Shown: positions 2,025 to 53,548 of the stretch, piece by piece
Layout: every line of letters begins with the position of its first letter
Position numbering within the stretch: position 1 is the first letter of the stretch
DNA from: an uncultured Candidatus Saccharibacteria bacterium
Lineage (GTDB): Bacteria; Patescibacteriota; Minisyncoccia; Phycocordibacterales; JACNGX01
Direction: 5' to 3'
Assembly: GCA_964621395.1 (NCBI GenBank)
Contig: CAZULS010000002.1
Location: 23,306 to 87,305 of the forward strand
DNA length: 64,000 bases
Made by a program: the position numbers and the translations under genes
Notes under the pieces: generated by a model
Seen by the model: only the letters and a program-made list of their open reading frames with translations
What the model was told of the DNA's origin: nothing
Database searches by the model: none

Positions 2025-4733
2025 ATGATGCCTCCAATGAACAATTTTACGACGAAGGCGAAAGAAGCGATTCGTCGTGCCCATGAGCTTGCCATTGAGC
2101 GCGGACAAAATCATGTCTCGCCGCTCCATCTCATGACCGCGCTCCTCCTTGAAGAAGAGGGCGTGATTATTGCCGCTCTTGAGCGTATGGAAGTGGATAT
2201 TATTCTGCTTTCCGATACCTTGCTTGATGTGATTGAATCGGAGGGTAATGCAAGTGTGTTGTCGCCGTCGTATCAGATATATCTCACTCCCGAGCTTGCG
2301 CAGGTACTTGAAGCGTCGGTGCGGTTTGCGCAGCACATGAAAGATGAATTTGTTTCCACCGAACACCTTTTCTTGGCAATGCTTGATGTGGCAAATCCTG
2401 CTCGTGAGGTGATTGCCCGATTTCGTATTGATAAAGATGAAATGTTGCGCGTGATTGAAGAATTGCGCGATCAGCATATCACCGATGCAACACCGCCGAA
2501 AAAAGCGCGTGCGCTTATGAAGTATGCGCGCAATCTCACGGCACTTGCCGCCGAAGACAAACTCGATCCGGTGATTGGCCGCGATAATGAAATCAGGCGT
2601 ATCATGGAAATTCTCTCGCGCCGCACAAAAAACAATCCGATTTTGATTGGTGAGCCGGGCGTGGGAAAAACTGCCATTGCTGAAGGGCTCGCCGTGCGTA
2701 TTGCCAAGGGCGACGCGCCGGATTCTCTGAAGGATAAAGAAATCGTTGGGCTTGATCTTGGTCTTCTCATTGCCGGAACAAAATTCCGCGGTGAATTCGA
2801 GGAGCGATTTAAAACAGTGATGAAAGAGGTGGAGCGTTCTGAAGGAAAGATTATTCTCTTTATCGACGAGCTTCATACGATTGTGGGCGCCGGTGCGGCC
2901 GAAGGATCGATTGATGCATCGAATATGCTCAAGCCCGCGCTTGCGCGCGGCGAATTGCGCGTTGTCGGTGCCACCACCTTGAAGGAATACCAAAAATACG
3001 TGGAGAAAGACGCGGCGCTCGCGCGCCGCTTCCAGCCCGTGTATATCGATGAGCCGTCTCTTGCTGATGCTGTCGCTATCATGCGCGGACTGAAAGAAAA
3101 GTATGAGCTGTATCACGGCGTGCGTATTACCGATGACGCGATTGTCTCAGCTGTGGAGCTTTCCTCGCGCTATATCACCGGACGTTTTTTGCCGGATAAG
3201 GCGGTAGACCTCGTGGATGAGGCGGCTTCGTCGCTGCGTATTTCGCTTGAAAGTATGCCGCCAGAGCTTGAAGAGACACATCGCGCGGTGATGCGCCTTG
3301 AGGTGGAGAAGGAGGCGCTTCGAAAAGACACCGGCACGGGGATTGACCCGGCGATTGCCAAGAAAGCAAAGGCGCGTTTGCGTGCAATTGAAAAGGAGAT
3401 TGCCGACTTGAAAGAAAAAACGCGTGAAGTGGAGCTGAAATGGAAGAATGAAAAAGAGCTTTTGAACGATATCCGCACGCTGAAGAAAAATCTTGAGAGT
3501 TTGCGCCTTGACGCTGAGAAAGCAGAGCTGCGTTCTGATTTGGGAACCGCTGCTGAAATCCTCTACGGCAAAATTCCGGTTATTGAGAGTGAACTTACTA
3601 CCAAAACAAAGCGCTTGAAGGGTTTGCAGAAGCGTCGCCGTATTCTCAAAGAAGAAATTACCGAAGAGGAAATTGCCGCCGTGGTTGCGCGCTGGACGGG
3701 CGTACCCGTCTCACGCATGCTTGAGGAGGAAACGAAGAAGCTTGCGCGTATGGAAGAGGAATTACAGAAGCGCGTGATTGGTCAGAATGAAGCGGTAAAG
3801 AAGGTGGCTGATGCCGTGAAGCGCTCACGCGTGGGAGTCGGAGACCCAAATCGCCCCATCGGCTCATTTATGTTTCTTGGTCCGACCGGTGTCGGGAAAA
3901 CCGAGCTTACGAAAGCACTCGCATCGTTTATGTTTGATGATGAAAGAGCGCTGGTACGCGTGGATATGTCGGAATACATGGAACGTCATTCCACGGCGAA
4001 ACTCCTGGGCGCGCCTCCTGGGTACGTTGGCTACGATGAAGCGGGACAATTGACGGAAGCGGTGCGCCACCGTCCGTATTCGGTGGTGCTCTTTGATGAA
4101 ATTGAGAAGGCGCATCCGGAAGTGTTTAACGTGCTTCTTCAGGTATTGGATGAAGGACAGCTCACCGATTCCAAAGGACGCACCATCAACTTCAAGAATA
4201 CGATTGTGATTCTCACTTCCAACATCGGCTCCGAGCACATCGATCGTATGCAAACCATCGGATTTTCCAATGGCGATGAGAAGGAGGATTATGATGACGC
4301 GAAAGATAAGGTGATGAACAGTTTGCGTGATCATTTCCGTCCGGAATTCTTGAATCGCCTTGACGATATTGTGCTCTTCAATATCCTTTCGGAAGAGACT
4401 GTGCGTGATATTGTGGATGTGCAAATCGCTATCGCAGAGAAACGTCTTGCCGAAAAAGACATTGTGCTTTCGGTGACACCTGCGGCGCGTACGCTTATGG
4501 GGAAGAAAGGATACAATCCGCAATACGGTGCGCGTCCGCTCAGGCGCTTGGTGCAGACGGATATTCTGACACCGGTGGCAAGTGCTATGATCGACGAAGG
4601 CATTATGAATGGCGGAAAAGTGACCGTGGACGTGAAAGGCGATGAGCTTGTGGTGAATGCCGAGGCGAAGAGAAAGAAGTCTCGAAAAACGACGAAGAAG
4701 CCGGCAGCGAAAAAAACGGCGAAGGTGGGGTAG
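2025..4733 (+). CDS. clpB: ATP-dependent chaperone ClpB (two AAA+ modules with coiled-coil middle domain)
   Basis: N-terminal Clp repeats, Walker A GEPGVGKT and a second GPTGVGKT, a long coiled-coil M domain, a sensor region, and a Lys-rich tail. Start could be 2025, 2028 or 2037. Confidence 0.93.
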
Positions 4734-4858
4734 GGGAAACGGTAGATGAGCTTAAAAAGGAGAATAGGAGATTACAAATTAAGGATTAAAAAAGGACACC
4801 CGCGCCGCGGGCGTTTGGGTTGCGACATGCAAAAAACATGTTACAATACCTCCCACTT

Positions 4859-4942
4859 GCGTCGGTGGCGGAGTGGTCAATCGCAGCAGACTGTAAATCT
4901 GCCGGCTTTATGCCTACGTTGGTTCAAATCCAACCCGGCGCA
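4859..4942 (+). tRNA. tRNA-Tyr (anticodon GTA), type II with long variable arm; CCA not encoded
   Basis: Acceptor GCGTCGG/CCGGCGC with one G-U pair. Anticodon stem-loop GCAGA-CTGTAAA-TCTGC. Variable arm CGGCTTTATGCC. T arm GTTGG-TTCAAAT-CCAAC. Discriminator A. Confidence 0.75.
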
Positions 4943-4985
4943 CAAATAAAAGAGCCCTTTATGGGCTCTTTTATTTGTGCGCCGG
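4936..4985 (+). terminator. Long perfect palindrome/terminator overlapping the tRNA-Tyr 3' acceptor strand
   Basis: ccggcgcacaaataaaagagccc-ttta-gggctcttttatttgtgcgccgg forms a ~23-bp stem. Confidence 0.6.
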
Positions 4986-5031
4986 GAGCAAGCCAACTGC
5001 TTGGCTTGCGTTCGGATTTAAATATGAATTA

Positions 5032-5457
5032 TCATTCGGGACGTATCAGCTTGAAAGCGGGACTATAATCTTCAGAGAGATAGCGCGGACCTTTCCCGAG
5101 CTCCTTTTTCACAAGTTTTGCCTTTTCGAATTCATATCCTTTTTCTTCCATTTTTTGATAGATTTTAATGACCTCAGGAGATACGCCGTAATCACTCTCG
5201 AAATTAAGATTATTATTGATACAATATTGAAGGACTTTTTCATACAACAGCGTTCCGTATCCTTTCCCGGACTCTTGCACACTTACATTAGAAATTTTGA
5301 GAGTGTCACCGTGTTTTTCAAGTACCATACCACCTATATTTTCTGGCAAGGTAACGAATACAGTGTCCCCTGTATCTTCTATCTGTATATCATCTAATGA
5401 TACGTATTCTGACCGAGATGGTGAATTTTCAGAAATGTTCTTCATACTACATATCAT
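5032..5457 (-). CDS. GNAT-family N-acetyltransferase
   Basis: Q-x-x-G-x-G acetyl-CoA motif (VQESGKGYGTLL) in a 141-aa protein of typical GNAT size. Confidence 0.6.
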   Translation of the reverse strand: MICSMKNISENSPSRSEYVSLDDIQIEDTGDTVFVTLPENIGGMVLEKHGDTLKISNVSVQESGKGYGTLLYEKVLQYCINNNLNFESDYGVSPEVIKIYQKMEEKGYEFEKAKLVKKELGKGPRYLSEDYSPAFKLIRPE

Positions 5458-5536
5458 AACAGGAATAGTCGCCTTTTATAACCCTCTGGGTTTTTTCTTT
5501 TGAAACACCATAAAAATGCGGTATCATTAAAGCATA

Positions 5537-6316
5537 ATGAAAAAAGCACATGCAGTGGCTCTGTTTACCTATCTCCGCAAAACGGCGGCGTTTGTTTTTT
5601 TGATTGCACTGTTGGCTATTACCGCGGACGTGCTAAGGTTTGTGACAATGATTGCTGCGTCACCGACAATTGGCCCGGCGGGTACTTCACTCGATCGTCC
5701 GTATGAGCAGGACATTCCCGGGGCGGACATGCGTATTCTCATTGCAGGTGACAGCACTGCCGTGGGTGTGGGTGCTTACACGCCAAGAGAAACTATTGCC
5801 GGAAGGTTGGCGGAGGATGTTCCGGACGCTGCTGTTGAGAACAGTGCGGTATCGGGAGCAAAGATTATTGATGTGATAGAGCAGTTTGATACTATTGAAG
5901 GGAGATACACCATGATTCTCGTCCAAGTTGGGGCTAATGATATTATTTACTTTTCAGACGAGTCGGAAATACAAGCCCAAGTAGGGGATATGATGAGTGA
6001 GGCGTATAAACACTCAAGTACGATTGTTGTGTTGGCGCCATTTGATGTGAGTATTGTCCCGCTTTTGCCACGTGTGTTGAGCCCTGTCTTTGCGACACGC
6101 TCCTCAGATATTTTGGGAGTCATGAAAGAAGTTGTGGAAGAGAAGGGAGGTATATTTATCGACTTGTATAAAAGCGAGGAAGAAAAGCAATTTGCGGAAC
6201 ATACCGATACATTTTTCTCGGCAGATTCTTTCCATCCGAGCAGTGATGGGTACGCACTCGCATACGAACGTATCAAAAAAGAATTGTGTGAGCGTGAGAT
6301 ATTGTGTGTGGAATAA
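5537..6316 (+). CDS. SGNH/GDSL-family hydrolase with N-terminal TM/signal segment
   Basis: Block I ILIAGDSTAVG (GDS), block III GANDI, block V DSFHPS (DxxH). N-terminal hydrophobic helix. Confidence 0.75.
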   Translation: MKKAHAVALFTYLRKTAAFVFLIALLAITADVLRFVTMIAASPTIGPAGTSLDRPYEQDIPGADMRILIAGDSTAVGVGAYTPRETIAGRLAEDVPDAAVENSAVSGAKIIDVIEQFDTIEGRYTMILVQVGANDIIYFSDESEIQAQVGDMMSEAYKHSSTIVVLAPFDVSIVPLLPRVLSPVFATRSSDILGVMKEVVEEKGGIFIDLYKSEEEKQFAEHTDTFFSADSFHPSSDGYALAYERIKKELCEREILCVE

Positions 6317-6370
6317 TTGTGTTTGATATGGTATCGTATGGTGACCGTATTGTTTTGTGTTAGAACATAC

Positions 6371-6441
6371 GGGAGATTAGTTAAGTGGCATAACAGCGGT
6401 CTCCAAAACCGCGGTCGGGGGTTCGATTCCCTCATCTCCCG
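6371..6441 (+). tRNA. tRNA-Trp (anticodon CCA); CCA tail not encoded
   Basis: Acceptor GGGAGAT/ATCTCCC. Anticodon stem-loop GCGGT-CTCCAAA-ACCGC. T loop TTCGATT. Discriminator G. Confidence 0.8.
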
Positions 6442-6450
6442 CCCTGCACC

Positions 6451-6480
6451 AAACACCACTCCCGAAAGGGAGTGGTGTTT
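6451..6480. terminator. Bidirectional terminator hairpin (aaacaccactccc-gaaa-gggagtggtgttt)
   Basis: Perfect 13-bp stem between tRNA-Trp (+) and the 3' end of the pfkB-like gene (-). Confidence 0.6.
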
Positions 6481-6499
6481 GGATTTCGCTTAGTTTAAT

Positions 6500-7492
6500 C
6501 TATACGATCTTCTTCGGTTCGTAGTCTGTGGGGCGGTTTGCCAGGTATTCTTCTAGCTTTTCGCGGGTGAGAAGACCTTCTTGCGCGCCAATACCTTGGA
6601 CAACCGACATGGAATTGATTGGTCCCCACATAAGCGCTTCGGATACCGGCTTGCCCAACACAAGCGCTGAGGTGAAGGTGCTTGAGAATGAGTCGCCGGC
6701 ACCGGTGCGTTCATACGGCGGAGCAGGATCCGGATACGGTGGCATAAACCATACACCTCCTTCTTCCGCAGCGTAGGCGCCTTTCGGTCCGTCGGTAATC
6801 ACTGCAATATTGGGGCCGAGTGTACGCATCTTTTGAGCAAGCTCTTCGGGTGAGCTATCGTCATCGCCGAGAATGAGCCGTGCCTCTTCCACATTACAGA
6901 AAAATACTTCTGTCTGCGCGTATAAGTCTTTGAGTTTTTCATAACCGAGCTTGATCTGGAACGTCCCGGGCTGGAATGCCAATTTCACATTCGGATGCTC
7001 TTCACAGTATGTGGCGATGGCGTGGTGATAGTCCATGGAGTTTTCACCGACGGAAGAGAAGTAAATCCATTTTGGCTCGCCGAGATCAGGGAGCGTGTAG
7101 TCGTATTCCTCATGCTTGATGAGAATGGTGCGCTCTGCCTTGTGCCAAAGAACATAATGATAATTGCTTACTTTGCCGGGATGAACGGTGATGAAGTCGC
7201 CCTCGACACCGTTTCCCTTGAGTGTCTCTATATCCTCCTTTCCATGTGCATCGTCGCCGAGATCGGTGACGAGTGCCGAGCGAAGACCAAGACGTGCGGC
7301 AGATACCGCGGCATTAGCGCTGTTGCCCACAGCCGGAACGACCGTTGCCGACTCAAACGGAATTTTTGAGCCATTGGTAAGACAGATTTTTTCCTCCTTT
7401 TCTTCTTCGTCGAAAAAAACACTTGCGTGATTGATGCGAATAAAGACGTCGGTAACCGTGTCGCCGATAGCGATGAAATCAAATTGCTCCAT
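6500..7492 (-). CDS. PfkB-family carbohydrate/nucleoside kinase (ribokinase-like)
   Basis: N-terminal IGDTVTDVF and Gly-rich region, plus the C-terminal anion-hole motif ERTGAGDSFSS (the DTxGAGD signature). Confidence 0.8.
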   Translation of the reverse strand: MEQFDFIAIGDTVTDVFIRINHASVFFDEEEKEEKICLTNGSKIPFESATVVPAVGNSANAAVSAARLGLRSALVTDLGDDAHGKEDIETLKGNGVEGDFITVHPGKVSNYHYVLWHKAERTILIKHEEYDYTLPDLGEPKWIYFSSVGENSMDYHHAIATYCEEHPNVKLAFQPGTFQIKLGYEKLKDLYAQTEVFFCNVEEARLILGDDDSSPEELAQKMRTLGPNIAVITDGPKGAYAAEEGGVWFMPPYPDPAPPYERTGAGDSFSSTFTSALVLGKPVSEALMWGPINSMSVVQGIGAQEGLLTREKLEEYLANRPTDYEPKKIV

Positions 7493-47269: not shown

Positions 47270-47282
47270 TATAATAATCCAA

Positions 47283-47390
47283 AAACAGCCTGACACCACT
47301 TTTACATTTCTTTTCAAGAAACACCGTCTCGTGACGGTGTTTCTTGAATCATGATATAAACGTCTTCGTAATCGAAAGTGGTGTCAGGCT
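47283..47390 (+). terminator. Nested terminator: 21-bp outer inverted repeat enclosing a 13-bp hairpin
   Basis: aaaacagcctgacaccacttt ... aagaaacaccgtc-tcgt-gacggtgtttctt ... aaagtggtgtcaggctgtttt. Confidence 0.6.
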
Positions 47391-47472
47391 GTTTTGTGTT
47401 TGACCCAACAATTCCCAACGTGTATTCTAGAGGAAGGAATTTGTTTTTTCTAACACTTAATCATACAACGCT

Positions 47473-47748
47473 ATGCAGGTACAAATGATTACTGTGGTCT
47501 TTTTGATGTTTACCACAATTTTTGCTTGGGGTTTGAGCGCAAGCATGGAGGATGAGGGATTTAAATGGAAAGGTCTCTCGGGTATGTTTCTCATCATTGT
47601 TCTGTTTTGCGGAACAGTTGGGGTACTTCCTTTTGCGCTTCCCCTTGATCAAGTGGAGGCACTTGCGTCCCCGTTAGCTATTGTTGCCTTCTTGGCATAC
47701 GTAGTTCCTTTGTTTGCTCACCGAAGACAAAAACACATCGCATCCTGA
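47473..47748 (+). CDS. Small membrane protein, hypothetical (91 aa)
   Basis: Three hydrophobic helices. Confidence 0.35.
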   Translation: MQVQMITVVFLMFTTIFAWGLSASMEDEGFKWKGLSGMFLIIVLFCGTVGVLPFALPLDQVEALASPLAIVAFLAYVVPLFAHRRQKHIAS

Positions 47749-47843
47749 GAGGTGCGATTTTTATTTGACTCCCCAACACAAAAAAGGTATGTTTTAGAGC
47801 ATTATAGTTCCTTAATTTTGAATGTAACTTAAACAGGAAGACG

Positions 47844-48131
47844 ATGGTAGACATACATCCTTTTCTCCTAGCCACAATTGTATTACTTCTTGTGGCAGGA
47901 ATGTTGTATTCGTTTGAAAGGACCAGACTCCTTTCTTTTGTTCCGAATATAATTGGCGTTTTCTTTTCTGGCCTTACGGGAGTACATATGTTTAGTGAGG
48001 GTCTCCATGATACGATGGCCCCTCTATTTTTCTTCTCCCCTGTGTTGGTGATAGCCGGGACAGAGTTTCTTCTTGCCTTTCTGTTCAAAAAAGCAAAGAA
48101 GGCATTGACACAAAAACCATGCACTGAGTAA
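47844..48131 (+). CDS. Small membrane protein, hypothetical (95 aa)
   Basis: Hydrophobic helices, similar in style to the preceding ORF. Confidence 0.35.
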   Translation: MVDIHPFLLATIVLLLVAGMLYSFERTRLLSFVPNIIGVFFSGLTGVHMFSEGLHDTMAPLFFFSPVLVIAGTEFLLAFLFKKAKKALTQKPCTE

Positions 48132-48219
48132 AGCATGGTTTTTTTATTTGCATTGATTGTGATTTTCAAGTACAATAGGGCACATATCGTACTGTGAGGT
48201 ACGAATACATTATTGATAA

Positions 48220-48594
48220 TTGTTGCATATATACCATATGGAAGCAGATCAAGCTTTTTTGGAGTTTGTTGTAAAGGCGATTGTTGACAATCCGGACGCT
48301 GTGAAGGTCGATCGTAAGACCGACGACATGGGCGTTCTTCTCACTCTCGATGTCGATCGTGAAGACATGGGTAAGGTAATTGGAAAGAGCGGAAACACCG
48401 CAAAGTCGATTCGTACGCTCCTCCGCGTTGTGGGCATGAAGAATGACGCACGCGTAAACCTTAAGATTGAAGAACCTGTTGGCGGTCTCCGCGACACCGG
48501 TAGCTACGGTGGGGGAGAAGCTCCGGCAGGAGACAGTGCTCCGTCTTCAGCAGCGGCAGATCTCGACGCTGCAATGGACGCACTCAAGGACTAA
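48220..48594 (+). CDS. KH-domain RNA-binding protein (YlqC/UPF0109-like), part of the rpsP-trmD operon
   Basis: KH GXXG loop in VIGKSGNTAKSIRTLL, and the conserved position after rpsP. Confidence 0.75.
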   Translation: MLHIYHMEADQAFLEFVVKAIVDNPDAVKVDRKTDDMGVLLTLDVDREDMGKVIGKSGNTAKSIRTLLRVVGMKNDARVNLKIEEPVGGLRDTGSYGGGEAPAGDSAPSSAAADLDAAMDALKD

Positions 48595-48650
48595 AGCGAC
48601 TAAAAAAGAAAAAAATCCTATAACATTGCCAAGGTAATGTTCGGATATAC

Positions 48651-48726
48651 AAAAAAGTGCCCAAAAGGGCACTTTTTTGCAGCACATAAGAACACACGCG
48701 CAAGCTAAAGCCTGCGCGTGTGTTCT
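48651..48726. terminator. Two consecutive terminator hairpins at the left boundary of the AT-rich island
   Basis: aaaaaagtgcccaaaagggcacttttttgc and gaacacacgcgcaag-ctaaag-cctgcgcgtgtgttc. Confidence 0.6.
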
Positions 48727-48881
48727 TTCAAGTACAAAGAATTATAATTATATAATTCCTGTAAATCACCGGCTTCTAAAGAGTACGGAAAGATGTTATA
48801 ATGTGAAAAATATTGTATTGAGCGTAATATGGAAGCAGACAAAGAGAATACTTTACATCAATACATTCTTAAACTAAGAAT

Positions 48882-49862
48882 ATGGCAAACAAAAATTCAG
48901 CACAAATGATAACGGGGAAATCTTTCGAGTATGCTCTTCTTGTTTCGTTTGAGGATAAGTTAAAGAGTAAAACCAACCTTGAAGTAATTAAGAACTCAGC
49001 TTTTTATGTTGCAAAAAGTTGTTTCGACAGTGTCTCTCCGAGCAAAAGAAGCGAGTATCTTTTATCAGCAAGTTTTGCTGTGAATTTTCTAATGGATATA
49101 GAACCTAGACTCTCAAACGATATGGGCAAAGATGATGTTCTTCAGCTTGAAATTTTATCTGATGATTATGGTAAGACAGGCGATGTTCGTGATGTGCTTG
49201 CTATCAGATTACTTCAGAAATGGGAAATTGGAGTTTCTGCAAAGAATAACCATAAAGCAGTTAAACATCCGCGACTATCTTCAGATATAGATTTTGGTGA
49301 TAAGTGGCTAGGCATTAAGGCGTCAGAAAAATATTTTGATGCAGTGGTGCCCATATTTGACCTTCTTAAGAAGATTAAAAAAGAGAGTGAGGGAAAGAAA
49401 AAATGGAATGAACTAAAAAATTATCACGCAGAGATATACGTACCAATCCTTCAGGCATTTGTAGAGGAGTTGAGAAGTCTTTATAAAAAGAATCCTAAAA
49501 AGGTAGCCTCAAATTTAGTTGCATATCTTGTTGGTAATAGGGATTTCTATAAGGTAATCAAGGGCAAGAACTCTGTAGAAATTCACGCTTATAATTTGAA
49601 CGGGACATTAAATTTACCTTTCAAGGAAATTCAGCCAAAATACAAGACCCCTAAAGTTCCTCTTCCTACGGAGATTACCGATATAGTCTTCAAAACCGAC
49701 AGTGATACAACAGTAATAGTTACTATGAACAATGACTGGACACTATCTTTTAGGATTCATAGTGCAAGTTCTAGAGTCGAACCATCTTTAAAGTTTGATA
49801 TAAATCTATTGAAGTCACCAAAGAAATTATTCAAGAATACACTGAATATCAGTCACGATTAA
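48882..49862 (+). CDS. Putative Type II restriction endonuclease (partner of the adjacent GGCC-type m5C methyltransferase)
   Basis: A 326-aa Lys-rich protein with no recognisable catalytic motif. Its stop is 3 nt before the MTase start, so the two are translationally coupled. Size and context match HaeIII-family REases. The assignment rests on association. Confidence 0.5.
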   Translation: MANKNSAQMITGKSFEYALLVSFEDKLKSKTNLEVIKNSAFYVAKSCFDSVSPSKRSEYLLSASFAVNFLMDIEPRLSNDMGKDDVLQLEILSDDYGKTGDVRDVLAIRLLQKWEIGVSAKNNHKAVKHPRLSSDIDFGDKWLGIKASEKYFDAVVPIFDLLKKIKKESEGKKKWNELKNYHAEIYVPILQAFVEELRSLYKKNPKKVASNLVAYLVGNRDFYKVIKGKNSVEIHAYNLNGTLNLPFKEIQPKYKTPKVPLPTEITDIVFKTDSDTTVIVTMNNDWTLSFRIHSASSRVEPSLKFDINLLKSPKKLFKNTLNISHD

Positions 49863-49864
49863 CT

Positions 49865-50842
49865 ATGAAATTAGTATCTTTGTTTACAGGCGCAGGAGGG
49901 CTTGATCTCGGATTTGAAAAGGTCGGTTTTCAGGTTATTTGGGCAAATGAATTCGATAAATCAATATGGAAGACTTTTGAACATAATTTTCCACATACAA
50001 AATTAGATAAGAAGAGCATCACAGAAGTTCAATCATGTGAAGTACCGGACGCAGACGGGTTTATTGGCGGACCTCCTTGTCAGAGCTGGAGTGAAGCAGG
50101 TGCCGGACGAGGGATAGACGATAAGCGTGGACAACTCTTTCATGATTATATTCGTCTTCTAAAGGATAAACAGCCGAAGTTTTTCCTTGCTGAAAATGTA
50201 TCCGGCATTCTTCATCCCAAACATTCGGAAGCTTTTTCAAATATTATCAAGGAATTTGAGAACGCAGGATATGTTGTGTCTCAAAAATTATTAAATGCGA
50301 ACGATTATGATGTTCCACAGGATAGATTACGTGTCATCATCATTGGATATCACAAGGATCTAGGAAAGAAGTTTGAATTTCCTGAGCCACAAATATATAA
50401 ACCTGTTCTCAGGGACGCTATTTATGACTTGCGCAGAGCGAAGCCGGCCAAAGATAGGAACAAGACAAATGGTGAGAGTTTGGAAATACCGAATCATGAA
50501 TATATGAACGGCGGTTTTTCGACGATTTACATGTCTAGAAATCGTGTGCGAGCTTGGGATGAGCCATCATTTACAATACAGGCAGGTGGTCGTCATGCGC
50601 CAATTCATCCACAGGCCCCGAAAATGAAATTCATCGAACAAAATAAAAGAATCTTTGTCCCTGGGTACGAAGATAAGTATCGTCGGCTGTCTGTTCGAGA
50701 GTGCGCGAGAATCCAGACGTTTCCGGATGATTTTATATTTAAATATAACGATGTTGCGAATGGATATAAAATGATCGGTAACGCTGTGCCAGTTAATTTT
50801 GCGAAGCATATTGCACGGAAGATAATGGATGATTTAGTATAG
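49865..50842 (+). CDS. DNA (cytosine-5)-methyltransferase, M.HaeIII-like
   Basis: Motif I LFTGAGGLDLGF, motif IV GGPPCQSWSEAG, motif VI FLAENV, motif VIII QDRLRVIIIG, motif X GNAVPVNF, in a 325-aa protein with a short target-recognition domain. The overall sequence strongly recalls the HaeIII/NgoPII GGCC group. Confidence 0.9.
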   Translation: MKLVSLFTGAGGLDLGFEKVGFQVIWANEFDKSIWKTFEHNFPHTKLDKKSITEVQSCEVPDADGFIGGPPCQSWSEAGAGRGIDDKRGQLFHDYIRLLKDKQPKFFLAENVSGILHPKHSEAFSNIIKEFENAGYVVSQKLLNANDYDVPQDRLRVIIIGYHKDLGKKFEFPEPQIYKPVLRDAIYDLRRAKPAKDRNKTNGESLEIPNHEYMNGGFSTIYMSRNRVRAWDEPSFTIQAGGRHAPIHPQAPKMKFIEQNKRIFVPGYEDKYRRLSVRECARIQTFPDDFIFKYNDVANGYKMIGNAVPVNFAKHIARKIMDDLV

Positions 50843-50846
50843 AGAT

Positions 50847-52784
50847 ATGAGAATTATAGAACGTATAGAAATCGCCTATTTTCGCTCTTTTCCTGAAAGT
50901 ACGATTATAAAAGATTGCAGGGACTTGAATGTCTTTTCTGGTGCGAATGATTCGGGAAAATCAAATATTCTTAGAGCATTAAATCTCTTTTTTTCGGAAA
51001 CGAAAACAGATTTTTATCAGATGATTGATTTTGAAAAAGATTTTTCTAAAGAGAGAGAGAATGTCGTTACGAAAGACACGGTGAAGGGTAAGAAATTTTT
51101 TCGTATCAGTATCTTGTTTAACAAAAAAGGTCTCGGCATATCCTCAACTGTTCTACCGGATTCGTTTTGGGTTGAGAAGGTTTGGGATAAAGAAGGTTCA
51201 ATGACTTCTAGAAAAACGAAGAATGGTAAACGACAACTTATATATGATGATGGTGCTAGCAAAAGGCAGACAAAGGTAGAGACTGCCACGACGATGTTTT
51301 TGAAAAAAATAGATTTTGCCTATGTCCCAGCGATAAGGGATAAATCTTTTTTTGACTATTTGAAGAAGGAATACCAAGATTCTCTTGGGCGCAAAATTTC
51401 TCGTCTGACTAACATTGCTACAGACGATAAGAGGACCATTGAAGAGTGGCTGAATATTTTAACAGTTGGTGACTTAACTGAGCAACTCGATAAAAAGATA
51501 GATCAGGAGTCAAAGGCTCTTATGAAAAAATTTAAAGAGTATACTCATGAGATAAAAGAGTCCGCCTTTTCTATCCCTAATTTAAAACTTGATTTTTCAC
51601 AAGTCCTTGAGATTGCAACTGAGCAGAATATCTACCTTCCTTTTCGTGGTGATGGGGTTCAGGCGAAATTTATTCCACAGATAATGACGGAGATTACGAA
51701 GAATAAAAAGACCCCAATTGTCATATGGGGCTTTGAAGAACCAGAAAATTCACTGGAATATAGAAATGCCCAACAGTTTGCCGAATTACTTCTCAGTGAG
51801 AGCTTAAAGGAAAAACAAGTGTTCGTTACTAGTCATGCATTTAATTTTATTGCCCTACAAGGTGAAAACGTATCTCAGTATAGAGTCTATAAAGGTGAGA
51901 AAAATGAAACGAATATTACCTCTTTGAACGTAGAACAAAGTTCTATTTTTGAAAAAAGCGATAGAGACCTTTTGTCAGAGGAGTTGGGTGTTTTTGAGTT
52001 AAACAATGAACTGAGGTCAGTCTATAGCCTGAAAATTAATGAGATAAATCTCTTTAAGGAAAAAAAGTCAGAATACGAAAGACTGTTATCTTCCAGACCA
52101 GACAAGATATTTATTTGTGAAGACTCAAAGCCAAACATTGTTTCTTTGTGGGAGAGGTTTTTGGTGGACCTTGATATTCAGGACGTCAAAGTTATGTCAT
52201 CCGAAGGTTCAACACAAAATATTGTCGAATTAGGAATTCTTCATCAGAAAAAGCTTGATCCAGAATATAATCCATCTGTATTTAGGCAAATTGATAGAGA
52301 CGGACTAACTGATGGTCAGATGAAGGCTCTTGAAGAAAAACTCTTTAGGCAATTTAAGAGAGATATAAAGAAATATGAGTATTCTTTTCTTCCTGTTAAC
52401 GAGATTGAGAATTTTGCGGTTATTCAGAAAGAAGATATTTTCAATGGAGATTTTTGGAAAGTAAATCAAAAAAAGATAGAGGATAAATTTATGAGTACAG
52501 TAGAGGGAAGTTCGAAAAAGTTCTCAAAACTATTTGACACAGAAACTGAGAAAAGAGAATGGTTATTATTTCGGGATAAGGGTGGCGGCTTCTCTTCTGT
52601 TTATAAAGGGATGAGAGACTTCGCACAAAAAGACGGGAATAGATTTTTTCCTGGTAAAGATATTTGCAAGGAGATAGATAATTTCTCAGGAATTACTTTT
52701 TTAACTCACCTTGCTCCAGAGACATATTCGGAGGATTTGAAAGAGTATCTTAGTAGTATTAAAAATTTTTTTGAAGAATCATAG
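50847..52784 (+). CDS. ABC-type ATPase (AAA_15/AAA_21-like) fused to a C-terminal Toprim/DUF4435-like nuclease domain; OLD-family / fused PARIS (AriAB)-like / Gabija GajA-like defence protein
   Basis: N-terminal IERIEIAYFRSF and Walker A GANDSGKSN (nt ~50941-50967), Walker B/D-loop IVIWGFEEPENSLE, H-loop VFVTSHA. The C-terminal domain has a conserved Glu in IFICEDSKPN (nt ~52110), DxD in RQIDRDGLTD (nt ~52290), and FLPVNEIENFAV. The start is 4 nt after the MTase stop. Confidence 0.7.
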   Translation: MRIIERIEIAYFRSFPESTIIKDCRDLNVFSGANDSGKSNILRALNLFFSETKTDFYQMIDFEKDFSKERENVVTKDTVKGKKFFRISILFNKKGLGISSTVLPDSFWVEKVWDKEGSMTSRKTKNGKRQLIYDDGASKRQTKVETATTMFLKKIDFAYVPAIRDKSFFDYLKKEYQDSLGRKISRLTNIATDDKRTIEEWLNILTVGDLTEQLDKKIDQESKALMKKFKEYTHEIKESAFSIPNLKLDFSQVLEIATEQNIYLPFRGDGVQAKFIPQIMTEITKNKKTPIVIWGFEEPENSLEYRNAQQFAELLLSESLKEKQVFVTSHAFNFIALQGENVSQYRVYKGEKNETNITSLNVEQSSIFEKSDRDLLSEELGVFELNNELRSVYSLKINEINLFKEKKSEYERLLSSRPDKIFICEDSKPNIVSLWERFLVDLDIQDVKVMSSEGSTQNIVELGILHQKKLDPEYNPSVFRQIDRDGLTDGQMKALEEKLFRQFKRDIKKYEYSFLPVNEIENFAVIQKEDIFNGDFWKVNQKKIEDKFMSTVEGSSKKFSKLFDTETEKREWLLFRDKGGGFSSVYKGMRDFAQKDGNRFFPGKDICKEIDNFSGITFLTHLAPETYSEDLKEYLSSIKNFFEES

Positions 52785-52879
52785 CCAATAATTTATCTCC
52801 TTTCCGATATTTGCATTCTCAGGAAGACCAGATCTTAGAGAGTGCGAATATGAGGAGAGTAGATTCGTAATTCGTAACT

Positions 52880-53548
52880 ATGCATTTTCATGTGATTACA
52901 ATTTTTCCTGAGATGGTGCGGGGGTATGTTGACTCTGCGCTTCTTTTGCGTGCGCAGAAGGAGAAAAAGATTTCCGTGTCGTGTTATGATCCGCGAGATT
53001 TTACGAAAGATAAATGGCGGAAGATTGATGACCGTCCGTATGGGGGCGGGCCTGGTATGGTGATGGAAGCGGAGCCTATTTTGAAGGCGGTGAAGAAGGC
53101 GCGAGGGAAAAAGCTTGTATCATCGAAGACCGGCCAAGGGGAAAAGGTGAAGACGATTATTGTGTCGCCGCGCGGTGAGCAATTTTCAAATGACATGGCG
53201 GAGAAATGGGCGAAGCGCTACGACCATCTCGTGATTATTTCGGGGCGGTATGAGGGGATTGACGCGCGTGTGAAAAAGGCGCTTCGGGCTGAGGAGATTT
53301 CTATGGGGCCGTATGTTCTTACCGGCGGGGAAGTGCCGGCAATGGCGATTATTGATGCGACGGCGCGACGGATTCCGGGAGTTCTTGGAAATGAAGAATC
53401 GCCGGAGGAATACCGAGTAGCTTCGGGGGAGACATACACCCGTCCGGAGGTATTTACCTATGAAGGAAAACAATATCGCGTGCCGAAGGTGCTTCTTTCG
53501 GGGGATCATGGTGCGATAGAGGAGTGGAGACGGAAAAGCTCCAAATAA
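52880..53548 (+). CDS. trmD: tRNA (guanine37-N1)-methyltransferase
   Basis: MHFHVITIFPEM, DDRPYGGGPGMVM, and the SPOUT-knot region ISGRYEGIDARV. Confidence 0.92.
   Translation: MHFHVITIFPEMVRGYVDSALLLRAQKEKKISVSCYDPRDFTKDKWRKIDDRPYGGGPGMVMEAEPILKAVKKARGKKLVSSKTGQGEKVKTIIVSPRGEQFSNDMAEKWAKRYDHLVIISGRYEGIDARVKKALRAEEISMGPYVLTGGEVPAMAIIDATARRIPGVLGNEESPEEYRVASGETYTRPEVFTYEGKQYRVPKVLLSGDHGAIEEWRRKSSK

Follow-up and report, generated by a model that had tools for sequence, protein, structure and literature searches.

A HaeIII-type restriction-modification cassette joined to a predicted OLD/PARIS-like ATPase-nuclease in a probable composite defence island between the KH-domain gene and trmD of an uncultured Candidatus Saccharibacteria bacterium

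Embedded defence systems that combine an ATP-binding cassette (ABC) ATPase with a TOPRIM domain and are triggered by anti-restriction proteins have been described previously (bioRxiv 10.1101/2024.01.29.577857, PMC9122126, PMC11464382). Fused AriAB and single-gene OLD proteins are active on their own (PMC9122126, PMC10568477), HEC-04 requires Walker A and an E/D/D metal site (bioRxiv 10.1101/2024.01.29.577857), and the best HHpred match of a lactococcal AriB-like protein with DUF4435 was PH0156 (PMC11381338). The present study concerns a stretch of 64,000 nucleotides (nt), hereafter the window, from contig CAZULS010000002.1 of an uncultured Candidatus Saccharibacteria bacterium (GCA_964621395.1, positions 23,306 to 87,305, forward strand). 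Within it, an AT-rich, strain-specific island of 4.2 kb (48681-52878, no strand assigned, its limits placed where homology to L005, the closest relative, ends) separates the gene of a KH-domain protein from trmD and carries a restriction-modification (R-M) pair followed by a gene for an OLD/PARIS-like ATPase with a predicted nuclease domain. We favour the reading that this is a horizontally acquired composite defence island in a KH-trmD hotspot of a genome of the Parcubacteria/Paceibacteria type, in which the ATPase-nuclease probably acts as a second-line effector coupled to restriction.

All three open reading frames (ORFs) of the island lie on the plus strand, encoding a HaeIII-family type II restriction endonuclease (REase; 48882-49862, 326 amino acids (aa)), an M.HaeIII-like C5-cytosine (m5C) DNA methyltransferase (MTase; 49865-50842, 325 aa) and a predicted ABC ATPase/Toprim-like fusion (50847-52784, 645 aa). 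An earlier note on this DNA had named the same three kinds of protein, an assignment that is supported, with a nuclease-like C-terminal domain of the OLD/PARIS kind in the third. It had also described a gap-free three-gene operon with spacings of 3 and 4 nt; the tight packing holds, but the spacers, read directly, are 2 nt between the REase and MTase genes (TAA-ct-ATG) and 4 nt between the MTase and ATPase genes (TAG-agat-ATG). The block is apparently one transcription unit, with the ATPase gene probably co-transcribed with the R-M genes.

For the R-M pair, residues 12-311 of the REase matched positions 1-296 of the 298 in the Pfam model RE_HaeIII (E 3.1e-97), covering the family over its full length, and PADLOC assigned the protein to REase_II at 1e-100. 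The MTase (Pfam DNA_methylase, 5.2e-99) was aligned to M.HaeIII (1DCT) over residues 1-321 (E 9.5e-125), including the variable target-recognition region, as for a cognate m5C enzyme with M.HaeIII-type target recognition. By its sequence, the pair appears to be a complete type IIP system of the HaeIII type, and GGCC is its well-founded presumptive target because of the full RE_HaeIII match together with an MTase alignment that runs through the target-recognition region. It resembles the HaeIII system in the full-length REase and the aligned MTase, in its adjacent, co-oriented genes and in the GGCC depletion of the host, and differs in having R before M with the 2-nt spacer, no helix-turn-helix (HTH) controller and a third gene attached.

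The depletion was assessed with a maximal-order Markov model. The host part of the window (outside 48681-52878) contained 70 GGCC sites against 155 expected (observed/expected ratio (O/E) 0.45, z -8.5), making GGCC the most depleted of the sixteen 4-bp palindromes there. Among relatives, the O/E was 0.29 in L005 (6 vs 20) and 0.63 in L006, and ranged from 0.83 to 1.14 in L007, L009-L011 and L013. Since GGCC is depleted in the host and L005 and not in the distant relatives, the lineage has evidently been exposed to GGCC restriction for a long time; and since L005, which has no island at this site, also strongly avoids GGCC, the avoidance predates, or is independent of, this insertion. The second most depleted palindrome was GATC (157 vs 259 expected, O/E 0.61, z -8.4), which hints at exposure also to a GATC-specific restriction system.

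The cassette itself is not peculiar to this locus. REase homologues numbered 4161 at E<=1e-20, more than 120 clusters of them at 75-82% identity, with the named ones mostly from Patescibacteria. This cassette, with an R of 326 aa and an M of 325-327 aa, was found in three further loci (L131-L133) in differing contexts, namely beside terminase and recombinase genes, after an AbiE pair, and ahead of genes for another m5C MTase and a HATPase_c_3/Ymh protein; the 645-aa ATPase was present in none of the three. The cassettes of L131 and L133 have an HTH controller gene of 68-69 aa upstream, which the window cassette lacks. Nucleotide similarity between the window and L131-L133 was 75-76% over 48865/48881-50835 and ended at the end of M, from which it follows that the island is composite, consisting of an R-M cassette and a separate ATPase module.

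The 645-aa protein begins with an ABC ATPase domain of the OLD/AAA_15 type (about aa 1-345; 50847-51881, plus strand), detected by the Pfam models AAA_15 (1.7e-17, 64.6 bits), AAA_21 (38.2 bits) and SMC_N. All motifs of an OLD-type N-terminal ABC ATPase were present and invariant in a 39-member alignment, comprising Walker A GxxxSGKSN (K38), the G268-D-G270 signature, Walker B F296-E-E-P-E300 and T328/H330 (TxH, H-loop). PADLOC, which recognised the REase strongly, matched the 645-aa protein only weakly and in its ATPase part alone, with AriA best (1.6e-17), followed by AbiLi, NsnB, GajA and HEC-01A (1e-11); no family-level match to the protein was obtained. In a tblastn search of the plasmid collection, five weak matches were found, mostly to the ATPase region and covering 51-76% of the query, none of them full-length.

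The C-terminal part (aa 410-645; 52074-52781, plus strand) was assigned from a structure model as a Toprim-like domain with a helical subdomain, a predicted nuclease effector. AlphaFold2 reached a predicted local distance difference test score (pLDDT) of 81 when the full-length protein was modelled and of 96 with the C-domain alone, and the model of the latter comprised a four-strand beta-alpha core followed by the helical subdomain. Residues invariant in the family alignment were P418, E425-D426, W435, S452, E461, R480, D483, D485, V517, E519, E521, N522 and K604; in the model, E425/D426 follow strand 1, D483xD485 strand 3 and E519xE521 strand 4, a predicted placement that is canonical for Toprim domains. 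With the full-length model, the Foldseek ranking against the PDB was headed by the retron-Eco8 OLD effector, GajA and Ts OLD. As modelled, the protein is built like OLD and PARIS proteins, its effector domain being Toprim-like but very divergent. Sequence comparison does not place it in a described family, although it is predicted to function as OLD/PARIS proteins do, with the C-domain as a metal-dependent nuclease. In addition, the helical tail (aa 553-640, window ~52500-52770) gave a weak match to Csm2 of type III CRISPR (E 0.016), a resemblance that was rejected as probably due to chance.

Compared with PARIS, the protein joins an ABC ATPase of the AAA_15/AAA_21 type to a Toprim-like effector in one polypeptide, as AriAB fusions do, and the spacing E425...D483xD485...E519 parallels E26...D88xE90...E122 of AriB (PMC11464382). 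The ATPase exceeds the published bit-score thresholds for PARIS (64.6 and 38.2 bits for AAA_15 and AAA_21, vs 32 and 27 required; PMC9122126), and a logical tie to restriction is shared, as PARIS senses anti-restriction proteins. It differs from PARIS in lacking DUF4435 (PF14491; 27-bit rule) even at E<=10, hence failing the published detection rule, and in that its fused effector cannot be released as AriB is from AriA. With the OLD family (P2 Old, Ts OLD 6P74, GajA and the retron-Eco8 effector) it shares a domain order in which an ABC ATPase containing an insertion precedes a C-terminal Toprim-like and helical region, as well as the best full-length Foldseek matches; it differs from that family in having no Pfam match to OLD-like_TOPRIM or Toprim, and in standing next to R-M genes rather than being solitary (Class 1), beside a UvrD-like helicase (Class 2) or in a retron (Class 3). 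HEC-01 and HEC-04 are embedded ATPase-TOPRIM defences, the latter likewise consisting of an ABC ATPase fused to TOPRIM (bioRxiv 10.1101/2024.01.29.577857).

A word-indexed profile search with the C-domain yielded 22 extra proteins, and an exhaustive HMMER profile search of 1.84 billion representatives returned 84; all were members of the same family or fragments of them, and none was annotated as DUF4435 or Toprim. In every near-complete member checked (about 590-700 aa), the domain was C-terminal, after the ABC ATPase. The shorter entries, including several stand-alone C-domains of 209-275 aa, are possibly fragments or split genes. In one metagenomic locus (L055), the ATPase part (4658-5707, 349 aa) and the C-domain (5774-6592, 272 aa) were separate consecutive ORFs; such cases may reflect a division into two genes, like that of AriA and AriB, or else frameshifts or fragments.

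Genomic contexts were collected from loci positive for hidden Markov models of both domains, together with additional look-ups. In four diverged loci (L003, L043, L046 and L050), the ATPase homologue was nested in a type I hsd operon in the order hsdM-X-hsdS, with overlaps of 4-26 nt (4-11 nt in three of the four) and ATPases 35-54% identical to the query. Such nesting corresponds to the "guilt-by-embedding" pattern of PrrC in EcoprrI. The family differs from PrrC in that its C-domain has a modelled alpha/beta fold with four strands rather than a PrrC-type anticodon nuclease domain; no PrrC/RloC model of Pfam or PADLOC was among the matches listed, and the window partner is of type II. Type II partners were also seen in L053 (N6_N4 MTase-RE_BsaWI-X, with a gap of 2 nt) and L057 (X-RE_TdeIII, with a 14-nt overlap), a weak TaqI_C-like ORF lay 2 nt upstream of the homologue in L081, and the homologue of L127 was the divergent neighbour of a 1016-aa enzyme of the Eco57I/MmeI type. 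Altogether, at least eight of about 21 contexts, the window included, were R-M-adjacent, a count that has no formal null against other defence genes and is a lower bound, as six loci were known from aggregated Pfam counts alone. The ATPase family is therefore often tied to R-M operons. Among the remaining contexts, the homologue of L113 was followed by two AbiH genes.

On these grounds, the island can be viewed as two modules. The first, the HaeIII-type type IIP cassette (R then M), would methylate and restrict GGCC. The second would be a single-polypeptide OLD/PARIS-like protein in which the ABC ATPase serves as sensor and switch for the fused, divergent Toprim-like nuclease. The latter may stay latent until infection signals that restriction has been evaded or inhibited, whereupon an ATP-dependent conformational change would render the Toprim-like domain active, and the activated domain might cleave DNA, as OLD/GajA do, or tRNA, as AriB does, thus aborting the infection. 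We infer this second-line function, including the nuclease activity, the trigger and the R-M coupling, by analogy with PARIS (PMC9122126, PMC11464382), OLD/Gabija (PMC10568477) and PrrC and HEC-04 (bioRxiv 10.1101/2024.01.29.577857); a functional coupling of the ATPase with R-M is plausible.

Several observations weigh against this interpretation. Concerning the effector domain, neither aa 341-645 nor the C-terminal 265 aa matched any Pfam family at E<=10, NCBIfam gave no match, a C-domain profile searched against PDB sequences recovered no OLD, AriB or Toprim chain, and phmmer against the same sequences yielded ATPase matches and none relevant for the C-domain. Foldseek with the isolated C-domain likewise gave nothing significant, and no remote relative annotated as DUF4435 or Toprim that could serve as a bridge occurred among the 84 proteins. 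A sister clade has an ATPase about 50% identical and the classical motifs VED...FDFD...EIEH, with two members matching PF20469. When hhalign was used to compare the C-domain profile with P0035 (PF20469-positive), with P0016 and with alignment A5 of the sister clade, nothing significant emerged, and although ICED/VED and DRD/DFD stood in register with the sister clade, the E value was 0.11. A C-terminal Toprim was accordingly not recovered at the sequence-profile level by Pfam, NCBIfam, the PDB profile search or hhalign. Concerning the coupling, about half of the family is solitary or lies in mobile elements without R-M (L044, L049, L128, L129 and L130), so that an R-M partnership is not obligatory; the partners span types I, II and IIG, a mixture that argues against a specific protein-protein interface; and the HaeIII-type cassette circulates widely among Patescibacteria, usually without the ATPase.

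The context data bear equally on the possibility that two independent defence systems merely share the island, i.e., an R-M system alone and an autonomous OLD (Class 1-like) or fused-PARIS-like ATPase that hitch-hikes through defence clustering. This is an unlikely but serious alternative, for which the five solitary members named above, the three partner types and the ATPase-free cassettes of L131-L133, whose nucleotide similarity stops at the M stop codon, all speak, as does the autonomous action of fused AriAB and single-gene OLD in published systems (PMC9122126, PMC10568477). Independent hitch-hiking is harder to reconcile with four loci that embed the gene between hsdM and hsdS with overlapping reading frames while their ATPases are merely 35-54% identical, with the gaps of 2-4 nt in the window and L053 and the overlap in L057, and with an R-M adjacency far above that of a random gene. 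Accordingly, the view of one combined system taken in the earlier note was retained in part: the linkage of the ATPase family to R-M stands, but the locus is composite, its cassette is shared without the ATPase, and the nearest relatives of the ATPase are in type I operons.

A further alternative is that the third gene acts at the DNA level, as an ATP-dependent exo- or endonuclease that destroys the blunt GG^CC fragments or processes their ends and so replaces degradation of the RecBCD/AddAB type, which is said to be missing from small Patescibacteria genomes. In two unrelated loci, a gene of the DNA recombination nuclease family RmuC lies downstream of the ATPase homologue, directly in L044, where the homologue sits between dUTPase and RmuC, and as the second gene, after RE_TdeIII, in L057. 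These neighbours favour such a helper, whereas the solitary family members have no partner REase to depend on, and we consider it improbable.

Retaining the second-line effector as the preferred reading, its extension to the whole family is more tentative. The 645-aa protein may, although we regard this as doubtful, represent an undescribed, rare family of restriction-guarding sensor-effectors, which would form a general "anti-anti-restriction" module separate from both PARIS and PrrC. If so, an OLD-type ATPase with a highly divergent Toprim-like nuclease would have joined R-M operons repeatedly and whatever their type, sitting between hsdM and hsdS, behind the gene pairs of type II systems or next to type IIG enzymes; it would fire when restriction is bypassed, and here it would have been grafted onto a HaeIII cassette. 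R-M islands, ATPase-Toprim backup effectors and the nesting of such effectors in R-M loci have all been published before, and no new principle is involved; the new elements are a rare family of effector domains that escapes all current models, the linkage of this family to a type II cassette and the KH-trmD hotspot in Parcubacteria. Because Pfam, NCBIfam and PADLOC do not see the effector domain, defence-finding pipelines probably report just an "AAA ATPase". The locus also offers a small three-gene construct for probing the coupling of OLD/PARIS-like ATPase-nucleases to restriction enzymes.

As for the foreign origin of the island, the G+C content (GC) of 48740-52860 was 36.1% compared with 47.9% elsewhere in the window, the minimum among all 4.1-kb windows, and all 1-kb windows below 40% lay within 47.25-53.25 kb. 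GC at third codon positions was 0.32-0.35 in the three island genes and 0.50-0.55 in the KH gene, trmD, pilT and pilC. Moreover, the tetranucleotide L1 distance between island and host was 0.465, against a mean of 0.165 (standard deviation 0.022) for 105 non-island 4-kb windows (z = 13.7). The earlier description of a ~4.1-kb low-GC block between the KH gene and trmD, clearly below its flanks, is thereby confirmed in both respects. No ORF or domain of an integrase or transposase was found among the window ORFs and their Pfam matches, and a repeat search revealed no direct or inverted repeat linking 48.6-48.9 kb with 52.7-52.9 kb, in agreement with what had been noted before. Of the hallmarks of an integrase- or transposase-borne island, the locus thus shows a foreign composition and is lacking in close relatives, whereas a recombinase and flanking repeats were not found.

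The conserved flanks are the gene of the KH-domain protein, of the KhpA/B type (48238-48594, plus strand; Pfam KH_KhpA-B, E 3.4e-21), on the left and trmD (52880-53548, plus strand; Pfam tRNA_m1G_MT, 1e-43) on the right, with rpsP identified as Ribosomal_S16. A TrmD-based scan with one genome per species yielded 38 loci, 13 of which, of the Parcubacteria/Paceibacteria type, showed both the KH gene and trmD, separated by 69-1352 bp; wherever the contig also contained rpsP, the gene order was rpsP-KH-trmD, with RNase R on the opposite strand. The three island genes were found in none of these 13 relatives. In the closest of them, L005, a metagenome-assembled genome of Parcubacteria (NIOZ-UU136) with 96.6% (KH) and 87% (TrmD) aa identity, blastn homology to the window stops at 48680, past the first hairpin, and restarts at 52879, the nucleotide preceding the trmD ATG; its KH-trmD gap of 489 bp holds a small MazE/AbrB-like ORF instead of the island. 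The spacers of L009, L013, L016, L041, L042 and L005 carry a Trp-repressor-like protein, NUDIX, a 200-aa membrane protein, a MazE/AbrB-like protein and unknowns, unrelated ORFs that occur mainly in the longer spacers and are mostly of lower GC than their surroundings. The KH-trmD spacer is hence a pre-existing, recurrent variable hotspot without recombinase signatures. Because homology to L005 breaks at both edges and the other spacers hold unrelated ORFs, the island was either newly acquired at this variable intergenic site or took the place of other cargo there. Such a hotspot, together with a shared HaeIII-type cassette (about 80% protein identity) and GGCC avoidance, bears on the exchange and the placement of defence genes in tiny, host-dependent Patescibacteria.

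These comparisons leave little room for an ancient vertical arrangement or an assembly artefact. An ancient conserved arrangement was rejected, as the block is absent from L005 and from every other relative showing the junction and is an extreme compositional outlier, in line with the foreign origin proposed earlier. The R-M cassette is, moreover, common to distant Patescibacteria at 75-82%. Two independent Logan contigs, from runs SRR8146440 and SRR8146441, carry the identical arrangement, which speaks against a chimera and for a genuine locus, and taken together either alternative is scarcely credible. The idea that the island has freshly split the ribosomal operon was not upheld, given that the first hairpin is kept in the island-free L005 and that the KH-trmD spacer was already variable. 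Similarly, rimM is indeed absent here, as had been remarked, but none of the 13 relatives that show the KH gene together with trmD has it in rpsP-KH-trmD either; its lack at this locus characterises the lineage and has no connection with the island. In the rest of the window, an approximate Escherichia coli RimM query gave no tblastn match below E 3.7, a lead rather than a proof of absence.

Two strong hairpins had been placed at the left edge as markers of the island, and both exist. The first (48650-48679, plus strand; inverted repeat I21), with an A-run, a 13-bp perfect stem and a T-run, lies 3' of the KH gene (-20 kcal/mol, z -6.9). Because it is kept in L005 (9296-9372, 84% nt identity by blastn), which has no island, it represents the KH gene's own terminator and lies outside the island. 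The second (48688-48727, plus strand; inverted repeat I3, 19-nt arms 95% complementary; -28.4 kcal/mol, z -7.7) is on the island side, has no counterpart in L005 by blastn and is possibly an insulating terminator. A consensus terminator scan missed both through its own definition, but repeat finding, together with folding, confirmed them. An extended -10-like element, TGTTATAAT (48794-48802, plus strand), read from the sequence 80 nt 5' of the R gene, is a candidate island promoter; a consensus promoter scan gave a single, weaker site at 48852-48881. At the right edge, no terminator was found between the ATPase gene and trmD, and the 95-nt spacer folds into a long imperfect hairpin without a T-run (52795-52864, plus strand; -33.3 kcal/mol, z -4.5), which is unique within the window and could serve as a site of processing, regulate trmD or be left over from the edge. 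Rfam detected no family at gathering score over 48.5-53 kb, this hairpin included.

Furthermore, the gap between rpsP and the KH gene contains a stretch of ~40% GC (47270-48237) with two small, hydrophobic ORFs (47473-47748, 91 aa, and 47844-48131, 95 aa) without Pfam match. Both are absent from L005, where the gap is ~155 nt, and this stretch is a second, smaller insertion-deletion in the same gene cluster.

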